From contig QZJG01000065.1 in assembly GCA_003599275.1 (NCBI GenBank), positions 1,410 through 65,409 on the forward strand: a stretch of DNA of 64,000 nt, in the 5' to 3' direction. The number at the start of each line of letters is the position of its first letter. Position 1 is the first letter of the stretch. Under the pieces are notes generated by a model that did no database searches, had not been told where the DNA came from, and saw only the letters and a list, made by a program, of their open reading frames with translations. This stretch comes from Nitrospiraceae bacterium. Its GTDB lineage: Bacteria; Nitrospirota; Thermodesulfovibrionia; UBA6902. This document shows positions 1,578-60,848 of the stretch, in pieces. Position numbers and translations under genes: made by a program.

Positions 1578-4424
1578 TTATTGAGTTGTAAAGCGTTGCA
1601 CCTGACTCTCTGTTATTCCTCCCTTACCATCATCAACAGTGACTTTCCAGTAGTATGTAGTGCCTGTTTCTAATCCTGATACACTCCGGGTAACTTCATC
1701 ACTTGTCACCCCTCCGCCTCCATTACCGCCACCGCCACCCCCTCCGCCGCCACCGCATGAAACAAAGAGCATGGTGAACATCGTAATTATTACGATCAGG
1801 AGGAACATTTTTTTTCTGGTCCTTGCATCAGCGGCAAACACCATTCCGAACAACAACAGGCCGAGACCGGTCCCTGCATAGTGGACAGTTTTATTTCCGG
1901 CAGAAGCCTGTATGGAGGTAACGCCTATAAAATCCGGATCTTCACTATAGTAAAAGTGATAGGTTATCTGGTCCAGATCGGGGTCTGTGCAATTTTTCCA
2001 TCTGAATGACAGAGTTGTTCCCATATTTATCTGACCATTTGCAGGATAAACAAGCTCAGGCGAGGAAGGCGGATTATTATCGGCTGATGAAAGCCCTGTT
2101 CCACTTACTGCAACCATTACCGGATTTTCATCCGAATCATTTGACGGGATGTCAAAGCTGTCACTGAATGTGCCGGTCGCAGTCGGGGTAAAATTAACTG
2201 TAATGGTGCAGTCCTCTGTCGGCAACAGGACTTTTCCTGAGCAGTTGTCATTCAATATCTCAAATGGCGGTGTGAGCTGGTCATTCAGCGCTATGGCTCC
2301 TATAACAAGATTTGCAGTCCCGTAATTGGCTATCTTGACGGCCCTTGCCATGACGAGGCCTTCCGTTAAATTCTCAAAAGGCATTTGAAGGTCATCGGCA
2401 GGTCCCCTGGCATCGGACACCTTAATGTCCGGCGTCGGCAGAGTTCCTGTCCCACTCACACTTACGGTCACCGTGCTTTCATCGGGATCGTCAGAAGGAA
2501 TATCAAAGCTGTCGGCAGACATTATCAATGCTGACGGGGCGAAGGTCACTTTGAAAGTACACGTTGCCGCCGGGACCAGGACTTTGTTTGAGCAGTTGTC
2601 ATTTGATATTTCAAACGGCGTCGCAACGGGATTTGCACCTGCAATCTGACCGATATTAAAATCCGCATTGCCGCTGTTGGCAACCGTCACTGTCTGACTC
2701 GATAAACTGCCGGCTGATATATTACCGAAGGGCATGTTCCTGTCATCAACGGGTGGGATGGTGTCTGTCACTGAAATGTCAGGCTGAAGTATCTGTGAAG
2801 CAGGCAGATCTAATCTTCCATAGCCATAAACATTATCTTTTCCTGTCGCCCCCATATCTACTGCCTGATCAGTCAGGGCGTCCCATAACTGCGAGACAGA
2901 ATAACCGGGCTTATGGGAAAGGATTAAGGCCGCTGCCCCTGCAACATGCGGACTGGATGCGCTTGTGCCGAAAAAAGAACCATACGAATAACTTGATACA
3001 CCATCAGGGCCGCTGATATCCGGTTTTATTCTGCTGTCATTAGACGGGCCTTGCGAACTGAAACTCTCATAGGGACCGGTGCTCCATTTGTCCTTATTTA
3101 TGGCGGCAACGGCCATTGCATTAACTGCGTCTGCCGGGCCTATAAGACTGCTTGAGGCAACTGCGGGATTCAGGTTGTGATTGAAACTGTAAACCTCAAG
3201 CTTATGGTTTCCGGTTGCGGAACTTTTTTTGATTTTCAGATAATAAGTGCCGGAGGCCGGTACAGGATAATAAATATCTTCTATCGGCAGTTGTGTCCCG
3301 GTCTGAGATGTGTTGCTTGATGCCACCGGTGAAATTGAACTGTAACTATTATAAAGGAGCAAGTCATAGTCCTGATCGGTAGCAGGCCATGCATTCCATG
3401 TCAAAAAGGCCTGAATTGTCGATCCCGCACTTGCATAAATGGTTACAGCCTCATTGCTTCCGGATACGTTATGCCATTTGTCTGCATCAGGGTCTGAAAA
3501 GGCAGCTTCGTAGTGTTGCTGTGCTGAATTCCCTGCGGAATTTACCCACAGAATGCCGCTCGAATAGGCATCGTTAACAGTGCAGACCGGGTTGTCGTAA
3601 TAACATTCGCCGCTATAGAAATTTGTATTTACCCATCCTACTGAGTGGTTTATGATTTTAATCCCGTTATTTTTGCAGTAATCTTTTGCATCCTTTAAAT
3701 CTAAATTGTCGTCGATCTTCATAAGATACAATTGCGCCTCCGGGGCCATGTCGTAGACAATCTCGGCAACAGCGGTCCCGTGGTCTTCCGTCTCATTGGA
3801 GAAAGTTGTCGAAGTACATGAGCTCGTACAGTCGATTTTTGCAACACTGCCCGGCAATTCGCCTGCGGATATAGCTGAAGATAATCCTTTAAATCCGACG
3901 TCTATTATCGCGATTTTTACCCCTGCGCCTTTATATCCTGTGGAATGATAAACGGACGCCCCTGTCAGGCCCACTCCCTCACTTGTATATGATAACGGCA
4001 GGGGCTTATCAGGTAATTTTATAAACGATATCCCTGCCACATTATCTGCTATCTGTTTAATCATATTGACCGGGACCTTTGCTTTCATCACCTTATCGCC
4101 GCTCTTTACGATCTCAACTCCATAAGACTGAAGGGCATTCCTGTCAATTGCGTCAACGGTCCCGTCAGGTTTTGAAATCAGAAACACTGTGACTTTGTCC
4201 CGGTATTCAATTTTTATGTCTCTCTCCCGAGCAAAACTTTGAATATTGATTACGTCTGTTTCATATTTGTCCTGCAATTCCGCAAGGACACTTGCTACTT
4301 TTGGATGTACATTCCCGTTCTTGTAAACACCTTGCGCATTTGACGAAGCAGTGAAGACACAAACAATAAATACGGCTATCGTAAAAAATATTGCTGATTG
4401 CCTCACGTACCATTTCCTGTTCAT
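1578..4424 (-). CDS. Secreted subtilisin-like (S8) serine protease, with prodomain, two ~110-aa tandem beta-domain repeats and a C-terminal FN3-like/poly-Gly region
   Basis: N-terminal signal peptide. Catalytic triad motifs are present: DVGF (Asp), HGTAVAEIV (His), GTSASSPHVAGAAALI (Ser). An internal tandem repeat has the pattern ...FDIPSDDPDESTVTVSVSGTG / ...FDIPSNDSDENPVMVAVSGTG. A G10NG4 run sits near the C-terminus. Confidence 0.85.
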   Translation of the reverse strand: MNRKWYVRQSAIFFTIAVFIVCVFTASSNAQGVYKNGNVHPKVASVLAELQDKYETDVINIQSFARERDIKIEYRDKVTVFLISKPDGTVDAIDRNALQSYGVEIVKSGDKVMKAKVPVNMIKQIADNVAGISFIKLPDKPLPLSYTSEGVGLTGASVYHSTGYKGAGVKIAIIDVGFKGLSSAISAGELPGSVAKIDCTSSCTSTTFSNETEDHGTAVAEIVYDMAPEAQLYLMKIDDNLDLKDAKDYCKNNGIKIINHSVGWVNTNFYSGECYYDNPVCTVNDAYSSGILWVNSAGNSAQQHYEAAFSDPDADKWHNVSGSNEAVTIYASAGSTIQAFLTWNAWPATDQDYDLLLYNSYSSISPVASSNTSQTGTQLPIEDIYYPVPASGTYYLKIKKSSATGNHKLEVYSFNHNLNPAVASSSLIGPADAVNAMAVAAINKDKWSTGPYESFSSQGPSNDSRIKPDISGPDGVSSYSYGSFFGTSASSPHVAGAAALILSHKPGYSVSQLWDALTDQAVDMGATGKDNVYGYGRLDLPASQILQPDISVTDTIPPVDDRNMPFGNISAGSLSSQTVTVANSGNADFNIGQIAGANPVATPFEISNDNCSNKVLVPAATCTFKVTFAPSALIMSADSFDIPSDDPDESTVTVSVSGTGTLPTPDIKVSDARGPADDLQMPFENLTEGLVMARAVKIANYGTANLVIGAIALNDQLTPPFEILNDNCSGKVLLPTEDCTITVNFTPTATGTFSDSFDIPSNDSDENPVMVAVSGTGLSSADNNPPSSPELVYPANGQINMGTTLSFRWKNCTDPDLDQITYHFYYSEDPDFIGVTSIQASAGNKTVHYAGTGLGLLLFGMVFAADARTRKKMFLLIVIITMFTMLFVSCGGGGGGGGGGNGGGGVTSDEVTRSVSGLETGTTYYWKVTVDDGKGGITESQVQRFTTQ

Positions 4425-4433
4425 TTTGTCCCC

Positions 4434-4871
4434 TTACCGTACTACCGGTTTGTCAGGCAATTTTATCGACCGTATAATGGGTTCTTTTGATAGAGAGGTC
4501 AGCGCTTCTACAGGGACCGACGCCCTCAATAAATCTTTTGATTTTTTTTCTTCAACGATGCCGTGACTTTTAATTATCTCTTCTCTCTTTGAATCGTCAG
4601 AGGCCGGATCAAATATTATAAAGACCCTGACTTTCCCATTGGACAAGAAGATGTCATGTTGCTTTGCAAAGTTTTCCCGGTCTGCTGCAAGTGTAAGTTC
4701 ATAAAGTACTGAGCTGAGTTTCGCATATTCTCCGGGTTGCTTGTGTTGTGTCACTTTTTCCGGGAGGGCAGATTGTTGCGCAGATGTGCAGGACGCTATT
4801 AAAAGCAGATGGAGAAATAAAAAAGCGCTTTTGATTGTTCCGGATTTATAAACCCTGCTTGCCCTTTTCAT
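4434..4871 (-). CDS. Stand-alone lipoprotein homologous to the protease's own N-terminal prodomain (I9-inhibitor-like)
   Basis: Lipobox LLIASC. It aligns with residues ~40-140 of the downstream protease (SSVLYEL/ASVLAEL, KVRVFIIFDP/KVTVFLISKP, SIKLPDKP/SFIKLPDKP). Its stop lies 7 bp before the protease start. Confidence 0.7.
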   Translation of the reverse strand: MKRASRVYKSGTIKSAFLFLHLLLIASCTSAQQSALPEKVTQHKQPGEYAKLSSVLYELTLAADRENFAKQHDIFLSNGKVRVFIIFDPASDDSKREEIIKSHGIVEEKKSKDLLRASVPVEALTSLSKEPIIRSIKLPDKPVVR

Positions 4872-4990
4872 TGAGACGGCCCCCGGTTAATTTCAAGAAT
4901 CGACTTAAATTTTATATCAGACTCCCATCCCATTGTCAAACAGCCGGGGCGGGTTAAACGCACAATTCTTTATTTTGTATAATATAAACC

Positions 4991-6406
4991 ATGTCAAACA
5001 TCAAACATGATTTAAACGGACTTTCTATTCTCGTAATTGAAGATGATACGGCTTCAGTGAAAAGTATCGAGGGTGAGCTGAGGGATTACGGCGCAAATGT
5101 CTTTACGGCATCGGGAGCTGAAAGGGCGTCGGAGATTTTATCAAAGGAGCATATCAGCGTGATACTCGTCTCCCTCATGCTTGCAGACGAGAAATGCCTG
5201 AATGCCGTAAAGGATTACAAGGCAAGATATCCGGACACCCTGTTTTATTTATTGGCCGAGCATAATTACTGCCTCGTGGAACCGGTTGAAGAATCCATAA
5301 GGCAGATATTGGATGATTACTTCCGGAAGCCCCTTGATATTGAAAGATTTGCAAGTATAGTTGGGGCGAGTTTCGGAAGGCCCCGTTCTTCGATAACGGC
5401 GTTGTCCGTAATCGAGCCTTTAGCCAACAGGACAAAGCCGTATTTTATCTTCCGGTCCTATACCATGCGCCTGGCGCTCTCCAGCCTTCCACAGATCGCA
5501 GCTTCGGAACAGACCGTCCTTGTTTCGGGAGAAACAGGGACAGGGAAGGAACTGGTCGCCCGCGCCATTCATATGCTGAGTCCACGTTCGAACGGTCCGT
5601 TTGTCCCCATCAACTGCGGCGCCATACCCGAGAGCCTCATTGAGAGCGAGCTCTTCGGCCATGAAAAAGGGGCCTTCACAGGGGCGTTCAAGAGCCGGAA
5701 GGGGAAGTTCGAGGCCGCAGACAACGGGACGTTATTTCTCGATGAGATCGGCGACATGCCGCTTGTTCTGCAGATCCGCCTTCTCAGGGTGCTGGAAGAC
5801 AGGGAGGTCTATCGTATCGGCAGTGATAAGCGCATACCCGTCAGCGTCAGGGTCATAACCGCTACTCATATGGACCTTGAAGGCGCGGTGAGGAACGGCC
5901 TTTTCAGGGAAGACCTCTACTACCGTTTGAATGTACTCCGCATCCACCTGCCGCCGCTCAGAGAGCGTGTTGACGACATTCCGATACTCGCTTTGCATTT
6001 CCTCGAAAGGGCGTTTGATGAGATGCGGCGCGCTCAGCCCTATCCTTCCCTTTCACCTGAGACGGTCTACCTCCTTCAGCGCCATCCCTGGAATGGCAAT
6101 GTCAGGGAACTCAGAAACGTCATGACCCGTGTGGCCACATTATTGCCTCCCGACACAAAACATGTATTCCCGATACATGTCTCGCCTCATCTTGAAGGTA
6201 TAAACAGGGCAAAGAAAAGTCCGGACATCCCGGTAAGTTCGCAGGGGATATTCATCCCGAAAGGAACATCCCTCGAAAAGGCTGAAGACATGCTGATACA
6301 GGAGACATTAAAACAGACCGGCGGCAATCGCACAAAGGCCGCAAAACTTCTCGGCATCAGCATCAGGACCCTCAGAAGAAAGCTCCCCGGCATCCCCTCC
6401 CCATAG
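4991..6406 (+). CDS. Sigma-54-dependent transcriptional activator (NtrC family) with a non-phosphorylatable receiver-like domain
   Basis: AAA+ sigma-54 interaction motifs GETGTGKELVARAIH, GAFTGA and ESELFGHEKGAFTGA. C-terminal Fis-type HTH AAKLLGISIRTLRRKL. In the N-terminal REC-like domain the phospho-Asp position reads VILVSLMLAD (Ser) and the Thr position reads LLAEH (Ala). Confidence 0.85.
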   Translation: MSNIKHDLNGLSILVIEDDTASVKSIEGELRDYGANVFTASGAERASEILSKEHISVILVSLMLADEKCLNAVKDYKARYPDTLFYLLAEHNYCLVEPVEESIRQILDDYFRKPLDIERFASIVGASFGRPRSSITALSVIEPLANRTKPYFIFRSYTMRLALSSLPQIAASEQTVLVSGETGTGKELVARAIHMLSPRSNGPFVPINCGAIPESLIESELFGHEKGAFTGAFKSRKGKFEAADNGTLFLDEIGDMPLVLQIRLLRVLEDREVYRIGSDKRIPVSVRVITATHMDLEGAVRNGLFREDLYYRLNVLRIHLPPLRERVDDIPILALHFLERAFDEMRRAQPYPSLSPETVYLLQRHPWNGNVRELRNVMTRVATLLPPDTKHVFPIHVSPHLEGINRAKKSPDIPVSSQGIFIPKGTSLEKAEDMLIQETLKQTGGNRTKAAKLLGISIRTLRRKLPGIPSP

Positions 6407-55808: not shown

Positions 55809-56049
55809 CGCCCTATCGGTTTATCACTTCTCTCAGGGTATGGGGAGGGCGACTTTTCAGGACTCGACACTTGTCGCTGATCACTTAGCACTACTCCCTT
55901 TAATTAAATCCAAATATTTCTCTTGAAATTGCACGCTGATCGCTGATTGCTTAAGGCTGCTTTTTGCCTTTCACGCTTTCGCACTTACGCGCTTGGAATA
56001 TTCTTGCTGTTTCTCAGGGAGTTGATTAAAATTAAGCGGTGATTTTTAG

Positions 56050-56220
56050 AAGGGGGAAAGGGAAGAAAGATCCGAAGACAACGCCCGCGAAATAATTGAT
56101 GAGATACTTATTGCCAATCTCAAACGCGCTGAACGACTGCGGCAGTCGATATTGAAGAAGGCGTTTTCGGGGAGGCTTGTAGAGCAGGAGAAGAACTATA
56201 ACACTATGGGAAATACCTAA
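56050..56220 (+). pseudogene. hsdS: 3' remnant of type I R-M specificity subunit hsdS
   Basis: A 57-codon open frame with no start. It ends ...EDNAREIIDEILIANLKRAERLRQSILKKAFSGRLVEQEK, the conserved C-terminal coiled-coil of HsdS (LRQSILKxAFxGxL). Confidence 0.65.
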
Positions 56221-56244
56221 CGCAATAAAGTTGTAGGAGATAGC

Positions 56245-58209
56245 ATGAGTAATCTAAGAGCCTTTGTAGGTCATAGCTTTACAGATAATGATAAAGATGT
56301 AGTTCGTGAGTTCCTTGATTTTTTTGATCGAGTTCAAAGGATGGGGCTCGGATTCACATGGGATCATGCTGAGCCTGCTGCTCCAAAGATTCTTTCTGAG
56401 AAAGTATTAAGATTAATGGAAGATAAAAATCTGTTTATTGCAATATGTACGGCAAAGGAACAGGTCATAGATCCAAAGAATCTAAAAGAATCATGGCTAA
56501 ATAAGACAATTTTGAAAGCAAAAAAAGATGCTTTTAATTGGAAAACATCTGACTGGATTATTCAAGAAATAGGAGTTGCTGTTGGGAAGAAAATGGAGAA
56601 AATTATTTTACTTGAAGAGGGGTTAAGAAAACCTGGAGGACTCCAAGGAGATTTAGAATATATTCTTTTTAAACGTAACGAGCCATCAAAATCCTTTAAT
56701 AAAATAATTGAGATGTTAACAGCACTTTCACCAAAGGAGACATTGATCAAAGCTTCTCAATCGGAATCATCTGAAAAAACAGAAGTTGAGGCAATGCAAC
56801 AAGAGAAAGAAGAAAAGGTGGAGCCATCTACCTCTTGGGGAAAAAATGATTATGAATTTGCACTGTTTCGAGCCATTATCAAAGATGATAAAGAACAAGA
56901 ACAGAAAATAATTAAGGCATATAACGATTCAGAAGAAGGACAAAAAGACTCTAATAAAGCATCTTTTGAGGCCTTGAAATACTATTTCCGAAGATTGCAA
57001 GGTAAGGGAGTATACATAGAAGAACTAAAAGCATTGGCCAGCAAACATCCTGATAAGAGTGAAATTTCTTATTATTTAGGAAAAGCATACGAGGAATATA
57101 AAGACAATGATAAAGCTACCGTTCAATATGAAAAATCTGCTGAGTATACGCAAAGCCCTGAAGACAAGCTTGATCGTTATTGTTATGCTGCATTGGCAAA
57201 ATGTAAAAATGGTTCTAAGGACAGTGAAGACTGGCTGTTAAATAAGGTACGAATTTTGATTCCTGAGGTTGACGGTGGGGAATTTAGACTTTTAACGGCA
57301 CTAAGAGATATTGCTTTAATCGACGATAATAATGACAATTATTTAGCATTTGCAGAAAGGATGCTCGATATTAAGCCCGATGATAAAGATTTAAGATTTT
57401 CATTGGCATATAAGTATTCGGAGCTAAATAATAACGAATTAGCATTATTTCATTATTTGCTAATCCCGAATAGGGATCGTAACTCTGCAACTTGGAATAA
57501 TATAGGTGTTGCATGTGCAGAGCTTGGAATGCATGGAAAGGCAGTAGATGCATATCGTGAATCTGAAAAACTGGGGGGAACACTTGCTATGAGTAACCTA
57601 TCACATAAATTTATAACAGCCGGCTTCTTAAAGGAAGCAGAAGAAATTTGTGATAACGCTGTGAAAATAGAAAACTATAACAAACAAGTAGGAACTGCTA
57701 TCACGAGCATTAAAGAAACCAAAGACAATGACGATCAAAAACAAAAAAAGATATTAGATGATTATGAAAAAAGACGTAAGTTCTATATTGATTATGGGAA
57801 AGCAAGTATAAACCATCCGCCTGAAAATCATGAGGGTGTATGGGCTGGACCTGAATGTGAGCTCAATATCGAAGTTAAAGGAAGGACCTTTATTGCAAAA
57901 GGAAGTTATGAGAAAAAGGAGCGATTAAGGGTTGGGCTTGCTCCTCTTGCTTTTAGTTATGCATATAGTCAGGCAGAAAAGTCAGTGAAAATAAATGTCC
58001 GCTATGAAGGCGTCATAATAGGACGGGGAATAGAATATAAACTATTCATAGATAGAGAAGGTGGACAATCTACCGGGATAACAGCCTTTATTGATGGCGG
58101 ACCATCTAATGAGGGATTAATGATTATTGATGAAAATATGAAAACAATTAAGGTATATCAAAAAGGATCAAAAGAGACGGAGAAATTTTATGAGCTACGG
58201 AGAAAATAA
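56245..58209 (+). CDS. TIR-like domain / TPR-repeat protein (candidate antiphage effector)
   Basis: N-terminus RAFVGHSFTDNDKDVV ... LFIAICTAKEQ ... SDWIIQEIGVAVG resembles bacterial TIR (SxW..E motif). Then multiple TPR-like repeats and a beta-rich C-domain. Very AT-rich gene. Confidence 0.5.
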   Translation: MSNLRAFVGHSFTDNDKDVVREFLDFFDRVQRMGLGFTWDHAEPAAPKILSEKVLRLMEDKNLFIAICTAKEQVIDPKNLKESWLNKTILKAKKDAFNWKTSDWIIQEIGVAVGKKMEKIILLEEGLRKPGGLQGDLEYILFKRNEPSKSFNKIIEMLTALSPKETLIKASQSESSEKTEVEAMQQEKEEKVEPSTSWGKNDYEFALFRAIIKDDKEQEQKIIKAYNDSEEGQKDSNKASFEALKYYFRRLQGKGVYIEELKALASKHPDKSEISYYLGKAYEEYKDNDKATVQYEKSAEYTQSPEDKLDRYCYAALAKCKNGSKDSEDWLLNKVRILIPEVDGGEFRLLTALRDIALIDDNNDNYLAFAERMLDIKPDDKDLRFSLAYKYSELNNNELALFHYLLIPNRDRNSATWNNIGVACAELGMHGKAVDAYRESEKLGGTLAMSNLSHKFITAGFLKEAEEICDNAVKIENYNKQVGTAITSIKETKDNDDQKQKKILDDYEKRRKFYIDYGKASINHPPENHEGVWAGPECELNIEVKGRTFIAKGSYEKKERLRVGLAPLAFSYAYSQAEKSVKINVRYEGVIIGRGIEYKLFIDREGGQSTGITAFIDGGPSNEGLMIIDENMKTIKVYQKGSKETEKFYELRRK

Positions 58210-58212
58210 ATT

Positions 58213-58284
58213 ATGAGCACAGCACAAATAGTTCAAAAACTTTAGAATTACTGCAACGTCCTCCGTGACGATGGGATGAGTTAA
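58213..58284 (+). pseudogene. hsdM: 5' fragment of type I R-M methyltransferase hsdM (copy 1, internal stop)
   Basis: MSTAQIVQKL*NYCNVLRDDGMS* is the highly conserved HsdM N-terminus (IVQKLWNYCNVLRDDG), with TAG in place of Trp. Confidence 0.6.
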
Positions 58285-58286
58285 AT

Positions 58287-58940
58287 ATGAAAAAATCAGG
58301 CAGGTATAATACAGCGCATTTAATTGAAGATCAATTCGAGCCGGGGTCGCGTGGCAGGGTGCTCAGAAATCTTTTGCATATCACTCGCAAGCGCGAGATG
58401 GATGTTATTGAGGCTGAACGATACGCGCTTGTGCAAACGAAACTCATGGGTATGTTCACGAAAGAGCATCGCTTTTCCGCATCCGATACCTGCACGATAC
58501 ATAGAGAATGGCTTAGCGATGTGTATGAGTGGGCCGGACAATACCGACAGGTGAACATATCAAAGAACGGCTTTAGCTTTGCTATGGCACCTTATGTCCC
58601 AAAGCTGATGCAAGACTTTGAAGCCGGAGCGTTGAAAAAATATACCCCTTGTCTCTTTAAAAGCGATGATGAAATTGTTGCCGCGCTCGCAGTAGTCCAT
58701 ACCGAACTTATGCTGATTCATCCCTTCCGTGAAGGAAACGGACGGGCAGGGAGACTGCTCGCAGTTTTAATGGCATTACAGGCAGGGCTACGGGGTCTTG
58801 ATTTTACTGATATACAAGGTAAAAAGCGGAAAGAATATTTTACTGCTGTGCAGGCAGGTATGGGGCAGGATTATGAACCGATGAAAAAAATTTTCAGGTC
58901 CGTGGTTTCCCGGACGAAACAGAAACATGTGCAGTGCTGA
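58287..58940 (+). CDS. fic: Fic-family protein (AMPylator/toxin), no intrinsic inhibitory helix
   Basis: Fic motif HPFREGNGRAGR. No [ST]xxxE[GN] motif anywhere in the protein. Confidence 0.85.
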   Translation: MKKSGRYNTAHLIEDQFEPGSRGRVLRNLLHITRKREMDVIEAERYALVQTKLMGMFTKEHRFSASDTCTIHREWLSDVYEWAGQYRQVNISKNGFSFAMAPYVPKLMQDFEAGALKKYTPCLFKSDDEIVAALAVVHTELMLIHPFREGNGRAGRLLAVLMALQAGLRGLDFTDIQGKKRKEYFTAVQAGMGQDYEPMKKIFRSVVSRTKQKHVQC

Positions 58941-59100
58941 AGACGGTTTTCGCCTTGGCTATATTTTTCATGGCTTTCCTCGCAGGCGCATGGACCCCCT
59001 CGATAGCCGAGGAAGAAATGGTAACAGTTTCGATGATCTGCCTGCGTACCTCAGGGTCTTTAAGGAAGGGGTTGGTTTCAAGTAATGACTTCTTTGACAT
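58894..59100 (-). CDS. Small protein carrying the Fic-inhibitory (S/T)xxxE(G/N) motif; candidate antitoxin or Fic N-terminal remnant
   Basis: MSKKSLLETNPFLKDPEVRRQIIETVTISSSAIEGVHAP... contains SSAIEG. It is convergent with fic and overlaps its 3' end by 47 nt. Weak RBS. Confidence 0.35.
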   Translation of the reverse strand: MSKKSLLETNPFLKDPEVRRQIIETVTISSSAIEGVHAPARKAMKNIAKAKTVFSTAHVSVSSGKPRT

Positions 59101-59145: not shown

Positions 59146-59217
59146 ATGACTAACGGCTCAGCCACTATAGTCCAAAAACTCTGGAACTATTGCAACGTCC
59201 TTCGTGACGACGGATGA
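59146..59217 (+). pseudogene. hsdM: 5' fragment of hsdM (copy 2)
   Basis: MTNGSATIVQKLWNYCNVLRDDG* is about 85% nt-identical to copy 1 and is truncated by TGA. Confidence 0.6.
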
Positions 59218-59361: not shown

Positions 59362-59766
59362 GTGAATGAGGTGAGGTTTTCGCTTATTAAACATATTTCG
59401 TGGTATCTTGTTTTTGTCATGTTCCTGACCGGCATTGTGCCCCGCGTCGAAGCAGGGATTTCCCCTTCGGAGGCGATTGCCGCCGTGGGATTTGACAGGG
59501 GTTCCGATATCCAAACGATCCGGAAATTCATCGAAATGAAAATGGTGAGGGAAAGACTCGCGAAACTTGGATTCACTGCGGATGAGGTCCAGTCGAGACT
59601 CGGTCAATTAAGTGATGAGCGGATCCATCAGCTCGCACAGAGGCTCGATGACCTTAAGGTCGGCGCCGACGACGGGCTGGGGATCATAATCGCCTTACTT
59701 GTTATCGCGATTTTGATAGTCATTCTGATACAGCTTACGGGTCGCAAGATTATTATCACCAAATGA
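59362..59766 (+). CDS. PA2779-family small protein (signal peptide plus C-terminal TM)
   Basis: N-terminal signal and C-terminal hydrophobic LGIIIALLVIAILIVILIQL. Paired with a downstream C39-like peptidase, as in PA2779/PA2778 pairs. Confidence 0.45.
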   Translation: MNEVRFSLIKHISWYLVFVMFLTGIVPRVEAGISPSEAIAAVGFDRGSDIQTIRKFIEMKMVRERLAKLGFTADEVQSRLGQLSDERIHQLAQRLDDLKVGADDGLGIIIALLVIAILIVILIQLTGRKIIITK

Positions 59767-59781
59767 TTTTCAGGGACCTCT

Positions 59782-60348
59782 ATGTCAGGCAACGTCAGTT
59801 CTTATAGGACAAAAAAGGATGCAGCGCTGCATCCTTTTTTGTTTCTCGTGGTATTTTCTTTTGTCATTTCATGCTCCGGTGCGGCTGAGATAAGGGGGGG
59901 CGGCGTCGAAATTATCAGGGACGTCCCTTTCTATCCGCAGGAGGCCTACCAGTGCGGCCCTTCATCACTTGCCGGAGTAATGAATTATCTCGGAGCGGAT
60001 GCCACGCCTGAGGAGATCGCGGAGGAGATTTACAGTAAATCGGCAGGAGGGACGCTGGATATGGACATGGTCCTATACGCGGAGAAAAAGGGGTTGAGGG
60101 CGAGCCTGTATGAAGGCAGCTTTGAGGACATCAGGGACAAAGTCATGTCGCAGCAGCCGCTGATAGTCATGGTGGATTACGGTTTCTGGGTTTATCAGCA
60201 AAACCATTTTATGGTTGTTACAGGATTCGACAAAAACGGTGTTATAGTCAATTCCGGCAGAGAGCAACACAAGTTTCTGCCCATAAATAATTTTTTGAGG
60301 TCGTGGGAGAGGACAAAATTCCGGACACTCCTTATATTGCCCCAATGA
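59782..60348 (+). CDS. C39-like (PA2778-family) cysteine peptidase
   Basis: FYPQEAYQCGPSSLAGVMNYLG (Cys) and HFMVVTGFD (His) dyad. Signal peptide. Confidence 0.6.
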   Translation: MSGNVSSYRTKKDAALHPFLFLVVFSFVISCSGAAEIRGGGVEIIRDVPFYPQEAYQCGPSSLAGVMNYLGADATPEEIAEEIYSKSAGGTLDMDMVLYAEKKGLRASLYEGSFEDIRDKVMSQQPLIVMVDYGFWVYQQNHFMVVTGFDKNGVIVNSGREQHKFLPINNFLRSWERTKFRTLLILPQ

Positions 60349-60848
60349 TAAGATCTGCGAAATGCATAATATGCCTTAAACCCAGGACCCTGTTTTTACT
60401 TCTTCTCTTATCGCTGCTGATTTTTTCCGCATGCAGGCTTCCAAGGATAATCGTTCTGGACGACCCGCTTGCCCCGGAGGAACATTTAAACCTGGGGGTC
60501 GCATATGAAAAAAACGGCGAGTTTGATTCAGCATTAAAAGAATATGGTCTTGCCGCTAAAAGGCTTCCCCTTGCCTTTCTTTATCTCGGCAATGTTTATT
60601 TTCAGAAGAACGAATTTGATAAGGCTGAGGAATATTACGGGAAGGCCATCACGGCGGACCCTGCAAATGCCGACGCATATAATAATCTTGCATGGCTTTA
60701 CTACACACAAAAGGACAATCTCCCGGAAGCGGAAGGTCTTGTGCTGAAGGCAATTGAACTGGCCCCCTCGAAGGATGCTGTTTACAGGGACACCCTTGAA
60801 AAGATCAGGTCTTTAAGAAAGTCCTCACCACCTGATCTTTTTCTATAA
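60345..60848 (+). CDS. TPR-repeat lipoprotein
   Basis: Lipobox LLIFSAC followed by TPR repeats (LNLGVAYEKNGEFDSALKEY..., YLGNVYFQKNEFDKAEEYY..., YNNLAWLYY). The ORF is open from 60303. Confidence 0.6.
   Translation: MIRSAKCIICLKPRTLFLLLLLSLLIFSACRLPRIIVLDDPLAPEEHLNLGVAYEKNGEFDSALKEYGLAAKRLPLAFLYLGNVYFQKNEFDKAEEYYGKAITADPANADAYNNLAWLYYTQKDNLPEAEGLVLKAIELAPSKDAVYRDTLEKIRSLRKSSPPDLFL

Follow-up and report, generated by a model that had tools for sequence, protein, structure and literature searches.

A TIR-like enzyme domain fused to tetratricopeptide repeats and a novel beta domain: a candidate single-protein defence in the remains of a type I restriction-modification operon

Type I restriction-modification (R-M) operons can harbour functional defence systems, and both TgvAB (PMC11411939) and DarTG2 (PMC12255303) are embedded in this way. 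What, then, is the role of an intact gene that stands among the remains of such an operon? The question is raised by a 64,000-nucleotide stretch of DNA from a Nitrospiraceae bacterium (GenBank assembly GCA_003599275.1, contig QZJG01000065.1, positions 1,410 to 65,409; hereafter the window), in which a complete open reading frame (ORF) encoding 654 amino acids, here called X, lies between fragments of the type I genes hsdR, hsdS and hsdM.

A preliminary description of the locus proposed that X joins a TIR-like N-terminal domain to tetratricopeptide repeats (TPRs) and a beta-rich tail, and that it is a plausible stand-alone defence protein. Here, we examine X and its homologues by structure modelling, profile comparison and genomic context. 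With confidence only a little better than even, we read X as a self-contained single-protein abortive-infection defence, in which a TIR-type NADase is switched on by a phage cue; that X cleaves NAD+, answers to such a cue and protects against phage is our inference from fold, homology and context.

Domain organization of X

The features of X, with the basis of each in brackets, are as follows.

56235..56239, + strand: Shine-Dalgarno-like AGGAG, 5 nt 5' of the X ATG (direct sequence reading)
56245..58209, + strand: ORF X, complete and intact, 654 aa, ATG start (ORF list)
56245..56754, + strand: TIR/NDT-type N-glycosidase-like N-terminal domain, residues 1-170 (AlphaFold2 model, Foldseek, PF10137 profile comparison)
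56263..56280, + strand: beta-A motif F-V-G-H-S-F, residues 7-12 (alignments of family members)
56449..56547, + strand: CC-loop beta-hairpin-like insertion of ~33 residues, 69-101 (DSSP of the model)
56548..56574, + strand: alpha-C motif S-D-W-I-I-Q-E-I-G, residues 102-110 (family conservation; TIR profile alignments)
56566-56568, + strand: codon of the predicted catalytic Glu, E108 (Glu column of TIR profiles)
56755..56841, + strand: acidic, poorly conserved interdomain linker, residues ~171-199 (column identity; drop past residue 160 in the model's predicted local distance difference test score, pLDDT)
56842..57759, + strand: TPR or helical-repeat region, residues ~200-505 (Pfam TPR_19, NCBIfam TPR families)
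57760..58206, + strand: C-terminal beta domain, residues 506-654 (AlphaFold2 model)

The FVGHSF and SDWIIQEIG motifs are the most conserved part of the protein. Among 254 family members W104, Q107 and H10 are invariant, D103 is retained in 253, and E108 – the predicted catalytic Glu, whose conservation had been proposed as a check – is likewise retained in 253, the single exception being Lys; F7 and F12 are also invariant in the family. E108 aligns with the alpha-C Glu of ThsB-type TIRs, which is invariant there, and with that of PF10137 ('NVIHE'), while the beta-A motif aligns with FISHSW of ThsB-type TIRs and with FIGHG of PF10137. Across a 56-sequence alignment, mean column identity is 0.69-0.81 in the N-terminal ~160 residues, ~0.42 in the linker (171-200) and 0.37-0.58 in the first TPR half and the C-terminal domain; over residues 376-475 it is 0.63-0.71, on par with the enzyme domain.

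An AlphaFold2 model of residues 1-172, made with a 36-sequence alignment, has an alternating beta-alpha topology with a mean pLDDT of 90.2 and a predicted TM-score (pTM) of 0.84. In a Foldseek search of the Protein Data Bank (PDB) its top matches are the CMP N-glycosidase BcmB and DNPH1 (E 2.4e-4 to 1e-3; BcmB TMt 0.73), followed by the SARM1 TIR, EcThsB, the flax L6 TIR, the RPS4/RRS1 TIRs, NDT, SpbK and the SPARTA TIR, at TM ~0.5 (TMq ~0.53) and 10-18% identity. These matches form a block of Glu-dependent N-glycosidases, in which the catalytic Glu probably occupies the position of E108. Whether a TIR/flavodoxin-like fold is predicted had been set beforehand as a check on the proposed TIR-like domain, and the model answers it with an N-glycosidase fold of this kind, which together with the two motifs and the profile match below upholds that proposal. 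As far as the model goes, the fold search alone cannot tell 'TIR' from 'NDT-like'.

Sequence profiles point to one Pfam family. In a permissive scan of 36 N-terminal domains from the family, PF10137 was the sole recurrent family (9 of 36 matched, best E 0.0015), and no NDT family appeared among them even at E <= 10. TIR (PF01582), TIR_2 (PF13676) and ThsB_TIR (PF08937) were found neither in the full protein (E <= 1) nor in the 36 domains (E <= 10), and PDB sequence and profile searches with the N-terminal domain returned nothing relevant. We compared the N-terminal domain alignment by hhalign, in local mode with low mact, with an alignment of 60 PF10137 domains built from a set of 120 annotated proteins. 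This gave a probability of 78.9%, an E of 1.6e-5 and a score of 37.6. When the extension threshold was relaxed, the two profiles ran co-linearly through 135 columns (residues 2-165 against positions 1-139), pairing FVGHSF with FIGHG, ICTxKE with VMTGED, IIQEIG with VIHEvG, LLLEeG with VLLEdG, and YIxF with qIrF. Column-shuffled controls scored 13.9 +/- 2.6 against the same domains, with a maximum of 24.6, so that none of the 150 reached the real score (z ~9). The corresponding comparison with 17 ThsB-type TIR domains scored 23.2, with a probability of 7.6% over 93 co-linear columns, and none of 200 shuffles reached it; this set is cluster 2734565194 of Table S1 in bioRxiv 10.64898/2025.12.03.692087 and includes validated type IV, VII and VIII TIRs. 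The PADLOC ThsB1 model also matched the N-terminal domain of one member weakly (E 0.011), at the alpha-C motif.

PF10137 TIRs are reported to form a clade of their own, marked by a CC-loop beta-hairpin (as in SfTIR-STING and TirBCD), and CAP12/Pycsar TIRs to turn into active NADases on oligomerization (10.64898/2026.04.30.722052). The model of X has a beta-hairpin-like insertion in its predicted CC loop, between beta-C and alpha-C, with strands at 72-74, 81-82, 90-91 and 98-100 and block-mean pLDDT of 92-96, flanked by the conserved residues T69, E72 and K100. These sequence comparisons place the N-terminal domain beside the PF10137 TIR clade, as a diverged sister group or an outlier; by the Pfam threshold it is not a member.

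The 120-protein PF10137 set was collected via a protein encoded next to an X homologue on a contig of a Bradyrhizobium metagenome-assembled genome (MAG; locus L071). There, a 265-aa PF10137 TIR protein (1539-2336, + strand; E 5e-24) lies directly 5' of a frameshifted X homologue (2714-3548), placing two PF10137-type genes side by side.

The TPR repeats of the preliminary description are recovered by Pfam TPR_19 (27.2 bits against a cut-off of 25), with TPR_12, TPR_2 and TPR_17 just under their cut-offs; these matches span residues ~259-445 of the full protein, NCBIfam TPR families span 200-506 with scores far under their cut-offs, and many X homologues carry precomputed TPR Pfam matches. The tail had been described as beta-rich and ~200 aa long, and its character stands, while its length is ~150 aa (505-654). 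In an AlphaFold2 model of these residues (pLDDT 85.9) one helix is followed by eight consecutive strands with short connecting loops, two variable loops being of low confidence. This is the most variable part of X, and it belongs to no known family: no Pfam entry matched it in 36 members, Foldseek against viral predicted structures gave no significant match, and Foldseek against the PDB gave nothing significant either, with retinol-binding protein (a lipocalin) and the barrels of VtrC and GID4 coming nearest, at E >= 0.07 and TM ~0.35. The modelled likeness to up-and-down ligand-binding barrels is a hint only.

Spread and genomic setting

A word-indexed search of ~5.8 billion proteins gave 831 matches to X. 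With few exceptions the top 120 of these are 640-670 aa long; they cover 100% of the query at 38-71% identity and bear uninformative names ('hypothetical', 'TPR repeat protein'); homologues of 642-673 aa align full-length. A profile search with the N-terminal domain found 1,154 representatives at E <= 0.001, and in the top 150 of these the domain is always N-terminal in the same ~650-aa protein, shorter entries being probably contig-end fragments. Because a single architecture is seen among the 150 matches listed, the three-part fusion appears to be fixed.

Scanning 185,579 species, with one genome each, yielded 69 X loci distributed patchily over more than 10 phyla (loci are cited below by labels such as L003). 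They occur in Nitrospirota, Thermodesulfobacteriota, Nitrospinota, Bacteroidota, Chloroflexota, Latescibacterota, KSB1 and Marinimicrobia, and in Alpha-, Beta- and Gammaproteobacteria, including the cultured Nitrosomonas communis Nm44 and Lysobacter hankyongensis. X in the window has a GC content of 35.4% (26% at third codon positions), the lowest of the window, whose 2-kb segments average 48.2 +/- 3.3%. Its AT-richness had been noted before, and extends to the family: in 40 of 42 loci the GC content of the homologue is lower than that of the flanking DNA by more than 3 points, and the difference averages -11.5 points. Tyrosine integrases are found 1.7-4.9 kb 3' of X in 6 of the 69 loci. Homologues in L060, L061, L062, L068, L071 and L074 are broken into 2-4 ORFs by frameshifts or insertions, the match in L068 being spread over ~2.8 kb, which suggests an insertion; these split copies indicate frequent pseudogenisation. 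X is thus a horizontally spread mobile cargo gene, often riding in type I R-M operons.

The association with R-M genes is clearest on long contigs. Seven homologues lie on such contigs, and three to four of them are in intact operons with the order hsdR, hsdS, X, other cargo, hsdM (L003, L004, L005, L009); among the others, one lies beside a Lit-like Peptidase_U49 gene, one in a mobile-element-like region and two beside housekeeping genes. When HsdR, HsdS and HsdM from the intact operons were mapped onto the genome loci, hsdS was found directly 5' of X in 11 of the 69. In about 6-7 of these 11 the end of hsdS and the start of X share 4 nt, and the remaining gaps are at most 41 nt, except for 132 nt in L005; hsdM often follows within 60-90 nt of X where X is embedded in R-M genes. 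The other 58 loci (~84%) have no detectable hsd gene in the available flanks, which reach up to 8 kb and are shorter in some. Neighbouring cargo of X includes Fic/PDC-S04, AbiEi/AbiEii and Peptidase_U49.

No partner gene accompanies X consistently. Unbiased clustering of flanking ORFs from the 69 loci revealed no recurrent partner, cyclase, TIR or effector gene, and yielded only antisense shadow ORFs, scattered generic receiver domains, integrases and lineage synteny (ThiC); a ThsB-type TIR neighbour does not recur, with one marginal TIR match in one locus. We read X as a stand-alone defence because it has no partner gene, is embedded in R-M operons, neighbours Fic/PDC-S04, AbiE and Lit-like genes, is patchy in phylogeny and shows a GC deficit. 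In this respect the genomic context supports what had been proposed from the window by itself.

Two further cargo genes without a Pfam family lie between X and hsdM in R-M-embedded loci: one of 231 aa (L003 10213-10908, L051 10825-11532) and one of 161 aa (L009/L012 7459-7944). Both are candidates for additional embedded defence genes.

The window itself holds a decayed version of such an operon, with the following features around X.

55968..56108, + strand: R-M operon leader and first ~17 hsdR codons, start codon lost (76% nt identity to L005 3707-3842)
56109..56220, + strand: hsdS 3' remnant, last ~27 codons and tail, '...IANLKRAERLRQSILKKAFSGRLV...*' (tblastn against the L003/L009 HsdS C-termini; 89% nt identity to L005 7829-7893)
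58213..58281, + strand: hsdM 5' stub 1, 23 codons, in-frame TAG (tblastn, 81-91% identity to HsdM residues 1-25)
58287-58940, + strand: Fic gene (Pfam Fic E 9e-18; PADLOC candidate PDC-S04 E 5e-72)
58894-59100, - strand: convergent 68-aa ORF overlapping the Fic 3' end by 47 nt, without a Pfam match
59146..59214, + strand: hsdM 5' stub 2, ~23 codons and then a stop (tblastn, 85-100% identity to HsdM residues 1-23)

The hsdR and hsdS remnants form a scar (55968-56220) that is fused in frame at ~56108-56116 and ends at a TAA (56218-56220), 24 nt before X. Judged by comparison with intact operons, about 4 kb – hsdR and most of hsdS – has been deleted here, and X now stands directly behind the old R-M operon leader. 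A scan for promoters and terminators was uninformative, since counts were at shuffle level and none lay 5' of X. The two hsdM stubs, 'IVQKLWNYCNVLRDDG', are the two copies of a 58-nt direct repeat, D1 (79% identity), that flank the Fic cassette. Within the 64 kb no hsdR and no full-length hsdS or hsdM related to three reference operons could be detected; with the scar and the two stubs, the phrase 'R-M graveyard' used in the preliminary description proves locally apt.

Stubs of ~23 codons from the 5' end of hsdM also separate successive cargo cassettes in intact operons, ahead of the real hsdM. They occur at ~9990 and ~10900 in L003, at ~9960, ~10920 and 14230 in L005, at ~6420 and ~7320 in L039, and at ~11520 and ~13200 in L051. 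This arrangement suggests that recombination at the conserved 5' end of hsdM has let cargo be inserted one piece after another or be exchanged. The pair formed by Fic and the 68-aa ORF recurs in L005 (61% identity over 36 aa), L012 and L051, and the small ORF contains 'SSAIEG', which presumably corresponds to the S/TxxxE(G/N) inhibitory motif of Fic antitoxins. Past the island (59362-60848, + strand) lie genes for a DUF6627 membrane protein, a C39-like cysteine peptidase and a TPR protein, a set that resembles PA2778/PA2779-type genes and appears unrelated to X.

The closest relative of the window locus is in a Nitrospirae MAG (L006/L010), where the same hsdS remnant precedes X and the locus adjoins dnaJ. 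A tract of 575 nt (56210-56784, against L006 9966-10540) is identical in the two without a single difference, whereas both flanks are 72-97% identical. The tract runs from 35 nt 5' of the ATG to about codon 180, and so takes in the whole TIR-like domain, with its breakpoint at ~56785 in the linker. Over codons 171-385, dS is 0.26 and dN/dS is 0.30; past codon 385 homology is lost, and the relative's copy ends at 401 aa. This indicates that the enzyme module has recently recombined (by gene conversion or horizontal gene transfer) and that the remainder is under purifying selection. An alternative for the identical tract is a chimeric MAG assembly.

Mechanism and competing explanations

If X is a self-contained defence, the enzyme would be inactive in the uninfected cell, either as a monomer or as an autoinhibited oligomer. 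A cue from the phage, probably one of its proteins, would bind either the variable beta domain at the C-terminus or the first half of the TPR array, and binding could drive higher-order assembly through the conserved C-terminal TPR half. Assembly would let neighbouring TIR domains form composite active sites, in the manner of other PF10137-type TIRs, and the enzyme would then hydrolyse NAD+, stopping growth before the phage cycle is completed.

Several observations weigh against this account. Its autoinhibition and assembly steps are purely what we infer. The Foldseek TM is only ~0.5, NDT-type nucleotide hydrolases come a little ahead of the TIRs, and the first 50 matches for the N-terminal domain model do not include SfTIR-STING. 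X scores 16.2 bits against the PF10137 gathering cut-off of 24.7 (E 0.011, profile positions 2-112 of 119), and no curated TIR model, including TIR, TIR_2 and ThsB_TIR, reaches threshold for it. X also lies outside PADLOC v2: with PADLOC-DB v2.0.0, including the embedded PDC/HEC candidates, the sole match to the full protein was Csf2 (E 0.021), which is spurious. No X homologue was found in the plasmid and phage collections searched. Finally, outside the enzyme domain X is most conserved in its C-terminal TPR half, and for this reason a conserved partner or ligand fits at least as well as a variable phage protein.

That conservation is also what an R-M guard would lead one to expect. X could be translated together with HsdS, docked on HsdS/HsdM through its C-terminal TPR half and held silent, until a phage anti-restriction protein like Ocr, ArdA or Stp disables the complex; X would then be set free, destroy NAD+ and kill the cell. 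The PrrC/EcoprrI/Stp mechanism is an established precedent. Solo copies such as that in the window would then be orphaned or would sense the trigger directly, and the cassettes bounded by hsdM stubs would be a means of swapping guards or cargo between R-M operons. The order hsdR-hsdS-X-hsdM in the 11 genome loci and in the metagenomic loci L003, L004 and L005, the tight spacing of hsdS and X, and a TPR half as conserved as the enzyme domain, which suits a conserved host partner, are all in keeping with a guard, as is a 'guilt-by-embedding' survey in which PrrC, the classic example, is listed as almost exclusively inside type I R-M systems (10.1101/2024.01.29.577857). However, the 58 copies without a detectable hsd gene do not fit easily, and X in the window and in its closest relative has lost hsdR, hsdS and hsdM and yet is intact over the compared part, at the dN/dS given above. 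Moreover, unrelated cargo (Fic, AbiE, DarTG, TgvAB) fills the same slot without being R-M guards. On balance we regard a guard as unlikely.

We hold it about equally improbable that X is a nucleotide N-glycosidase and not an NADase, acting like DNPH1, BcmB/MilB or the 'CMP hydrolase' of ThsI by cleaving (d)NMPs or another nucleotide and so starving the phage. The structural ranking of BcmB (E 2.4e-4, TMt 0.73) and DNPH1 just above the TIRs is consistent with such an activity, as is the union of a CMP-hydrolase-like domain with TPRs in ThsI, and S-x4-E-[IL]-G-x-A in X may resemble the NDT/DNPH1 nucleophile motif. The profile evidence, however, favours PF10137 over NDT, and the beta-A motif F-x-G-H-S-F is common to ThsB and PF10137 TIRs. 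BcTpr, which itself combines a MilB-like domain with TPRs, has been reported to be an NADase, and X is unrelated in sequence to the ThsI-like protein and lacks its TPR-S domain.

It is quite improbable that X is no defence at all, and instead a mobile-element or housekeeping TPR scaffold whose N-terminal domain binds a nucleotide without catalysis. Many copies do adjoin ordinary metabolic genes (L006, L008; ThiC in 4 loci), and the family is annotated only as 'TPR repeat protein' or 'hypothetical', but near-invariant catalytic-type residues, repeated embedding in type I R-M operons beside Fic and AbiE cargo, and a patchy distribution (~69 of 185,579 species) with a family-wide GC deficit and frequent pseudogenisation all argue otherwise. 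About as improbable is a signalling component, in which X makes an NAD-derived messenger for an effector from another locus or is activated by a messenger bound to its C-terminal barrel or TPRs (as in the parallels cyclic ADP-ribose (cADPR)-ThsI and cyclic nucleotides-Cap12/PycTIR): PF10137-type TIRs are typically cyclic-nucleotide-activated effectors (Pfam description), the weak best matches of the C-terminal domain are ligand-binding up-and-down barrels, and BcTpr and ThsI bind or respond to cADPR, but the 69 loci hold no recurrent cyclase, TIR or effector gene beyond the one marginal TIR match, those barrel matches are not significant, and Pfam finds no receptor domain.

If X is active as a self-contained defence, it would represent a new family of single-protein immune proteins that combine a TIR-like enzyme with a repeat sensor, extending the CAP12/Pycsar TIR clade to a form without a cyclic-nucleotide receptor domain or a nearby cyclase, and its beta domain without known relatives would be a candidate sensor. 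Its tight position between hsdS and hsdM, often with translational coupling, makes it possible to test whether type I restriction has a second, PrrC-like line of backup, and the stub-bounded cassettes suggest a route by which R-M operons trade defence cargo. Most members of the family come from uncultured lineages of the environment (Nitrospirota, Thermodesulfobacteriota, diverse Proteobacteria).

X compared with known defence systems

The closest likeness in sequence is to PF10137, the family that includes the TIR of SfTIR-STING. X and PF10137 share the motifs F-[VI]-G-H, T-x-[KG]-E-[D], [IV]-I-[QH]-E-[IV]-G, [LV]-L-L-E-x-G and Y/q-I-x-F, a Glu at the start of alpha-C and, for X presumably, an effector position in defence proteins; the modelled CC-loop insertion of X may correspond to the beta-hairpin of PF10137 TIRs, but is longer (~33 residues). 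They differ in what the TIR is joined to: PF10137 TIRs have STING, SAVED or cNMP-binding receptors, whereas in X its companions are a TPR array and a novel beta domain, and no cyclase is encoded nearby.

ThsB-type TIRs (PF08937-like) share the beta-A pattern F-x-[SG]-H-S-[WF] and the alpha-C pattern S-[DK]-W-I-x-x-E-I with X; they are small signal producers with separate effectors, and X is a large multidomain solo protein. A Thoeris-like pairing is rejected, as a TIR neighbour does not recur in the 69 loci. BcTpr/ThsI comes nearer in build, with a MilB-like glycosidase followed by TPRs, and is reported to be an E86-dependent NADase that is cADPR-activated in type VIII Thoeris. As in X, a Glu-dependent N-glycosidase fold of the MilB/BcmB type is N-terminal, and the BcTpr/ThsI family is likewise solo in 29 of 78 loci. 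At 654 aa X is longer than BcTpr/ThsI (~400 aa), has the extra beta domain and lacks an adjacent ThsB TIR gene. Membership of this family is rejected: X has no TPR-S domain (PF20308), hhalign gives 1.3%, and BLASTP gives no match. The ThsI-like protein used here, which carries TPR-S (E 1.5e-17), was retrieved through its ThsB partner and is so called by architecture and context only. Its gene forms a pair with a TIR gene on the conjugative Escherichia coli IncP plasmid pKMi029_2 (NZ_CP147111.1; L079), where a second TIR gene with a DUF4231 gene lies alongside. The two modules together occupy 2776-5972, an arrangement consistent with adjacent type VIII and type VII Thoeris.

Vulcan and Swarozyc are single-protein abortive-infection defences that deplete NAD+ and are activated by phage proteins. 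Vulcan, a single gene joining DUF4062/NIR to HEAT repeats, depletes NAD+ in an E98-dependent manner and is triggered by a small lambda protein, and Swarozyc, also with DUF4062, is activated by the phage portal protein. X resembles both in being a single gene with an N-terminal TIR-like N-glycosidase, a Glu near residue 100 and a C-terminal alpha-solenoid; unlike them, it has TPRs and not HEAT repeats, and an additional C-terminal beta domain. DUF4062 matched neither the 36 N-terminal domains (E <= 10) nor the full protein, and membership of the DUF4062/NIR group (Swarozyc, Vulcan, Vesta, Evangelion) is rejected for lack of a DUF4062 hidden Markov model match.

By position, many relatives of X resemble PrrC, TgvAB, DarTG2, RloF and the PDC/HEC candidates, which are encoded between type I hsd genes; in sequence and domains X is unrelated to PrrC and this other R-M cargo, and most X copies lie outside R-M operons. 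The design principle of X is already familiar. What is new is the family with its C-terminal domain, a PF10137-like TIR that lacks a cyclic-nucleotide receptor domain, and the tight coupling to hsdS.

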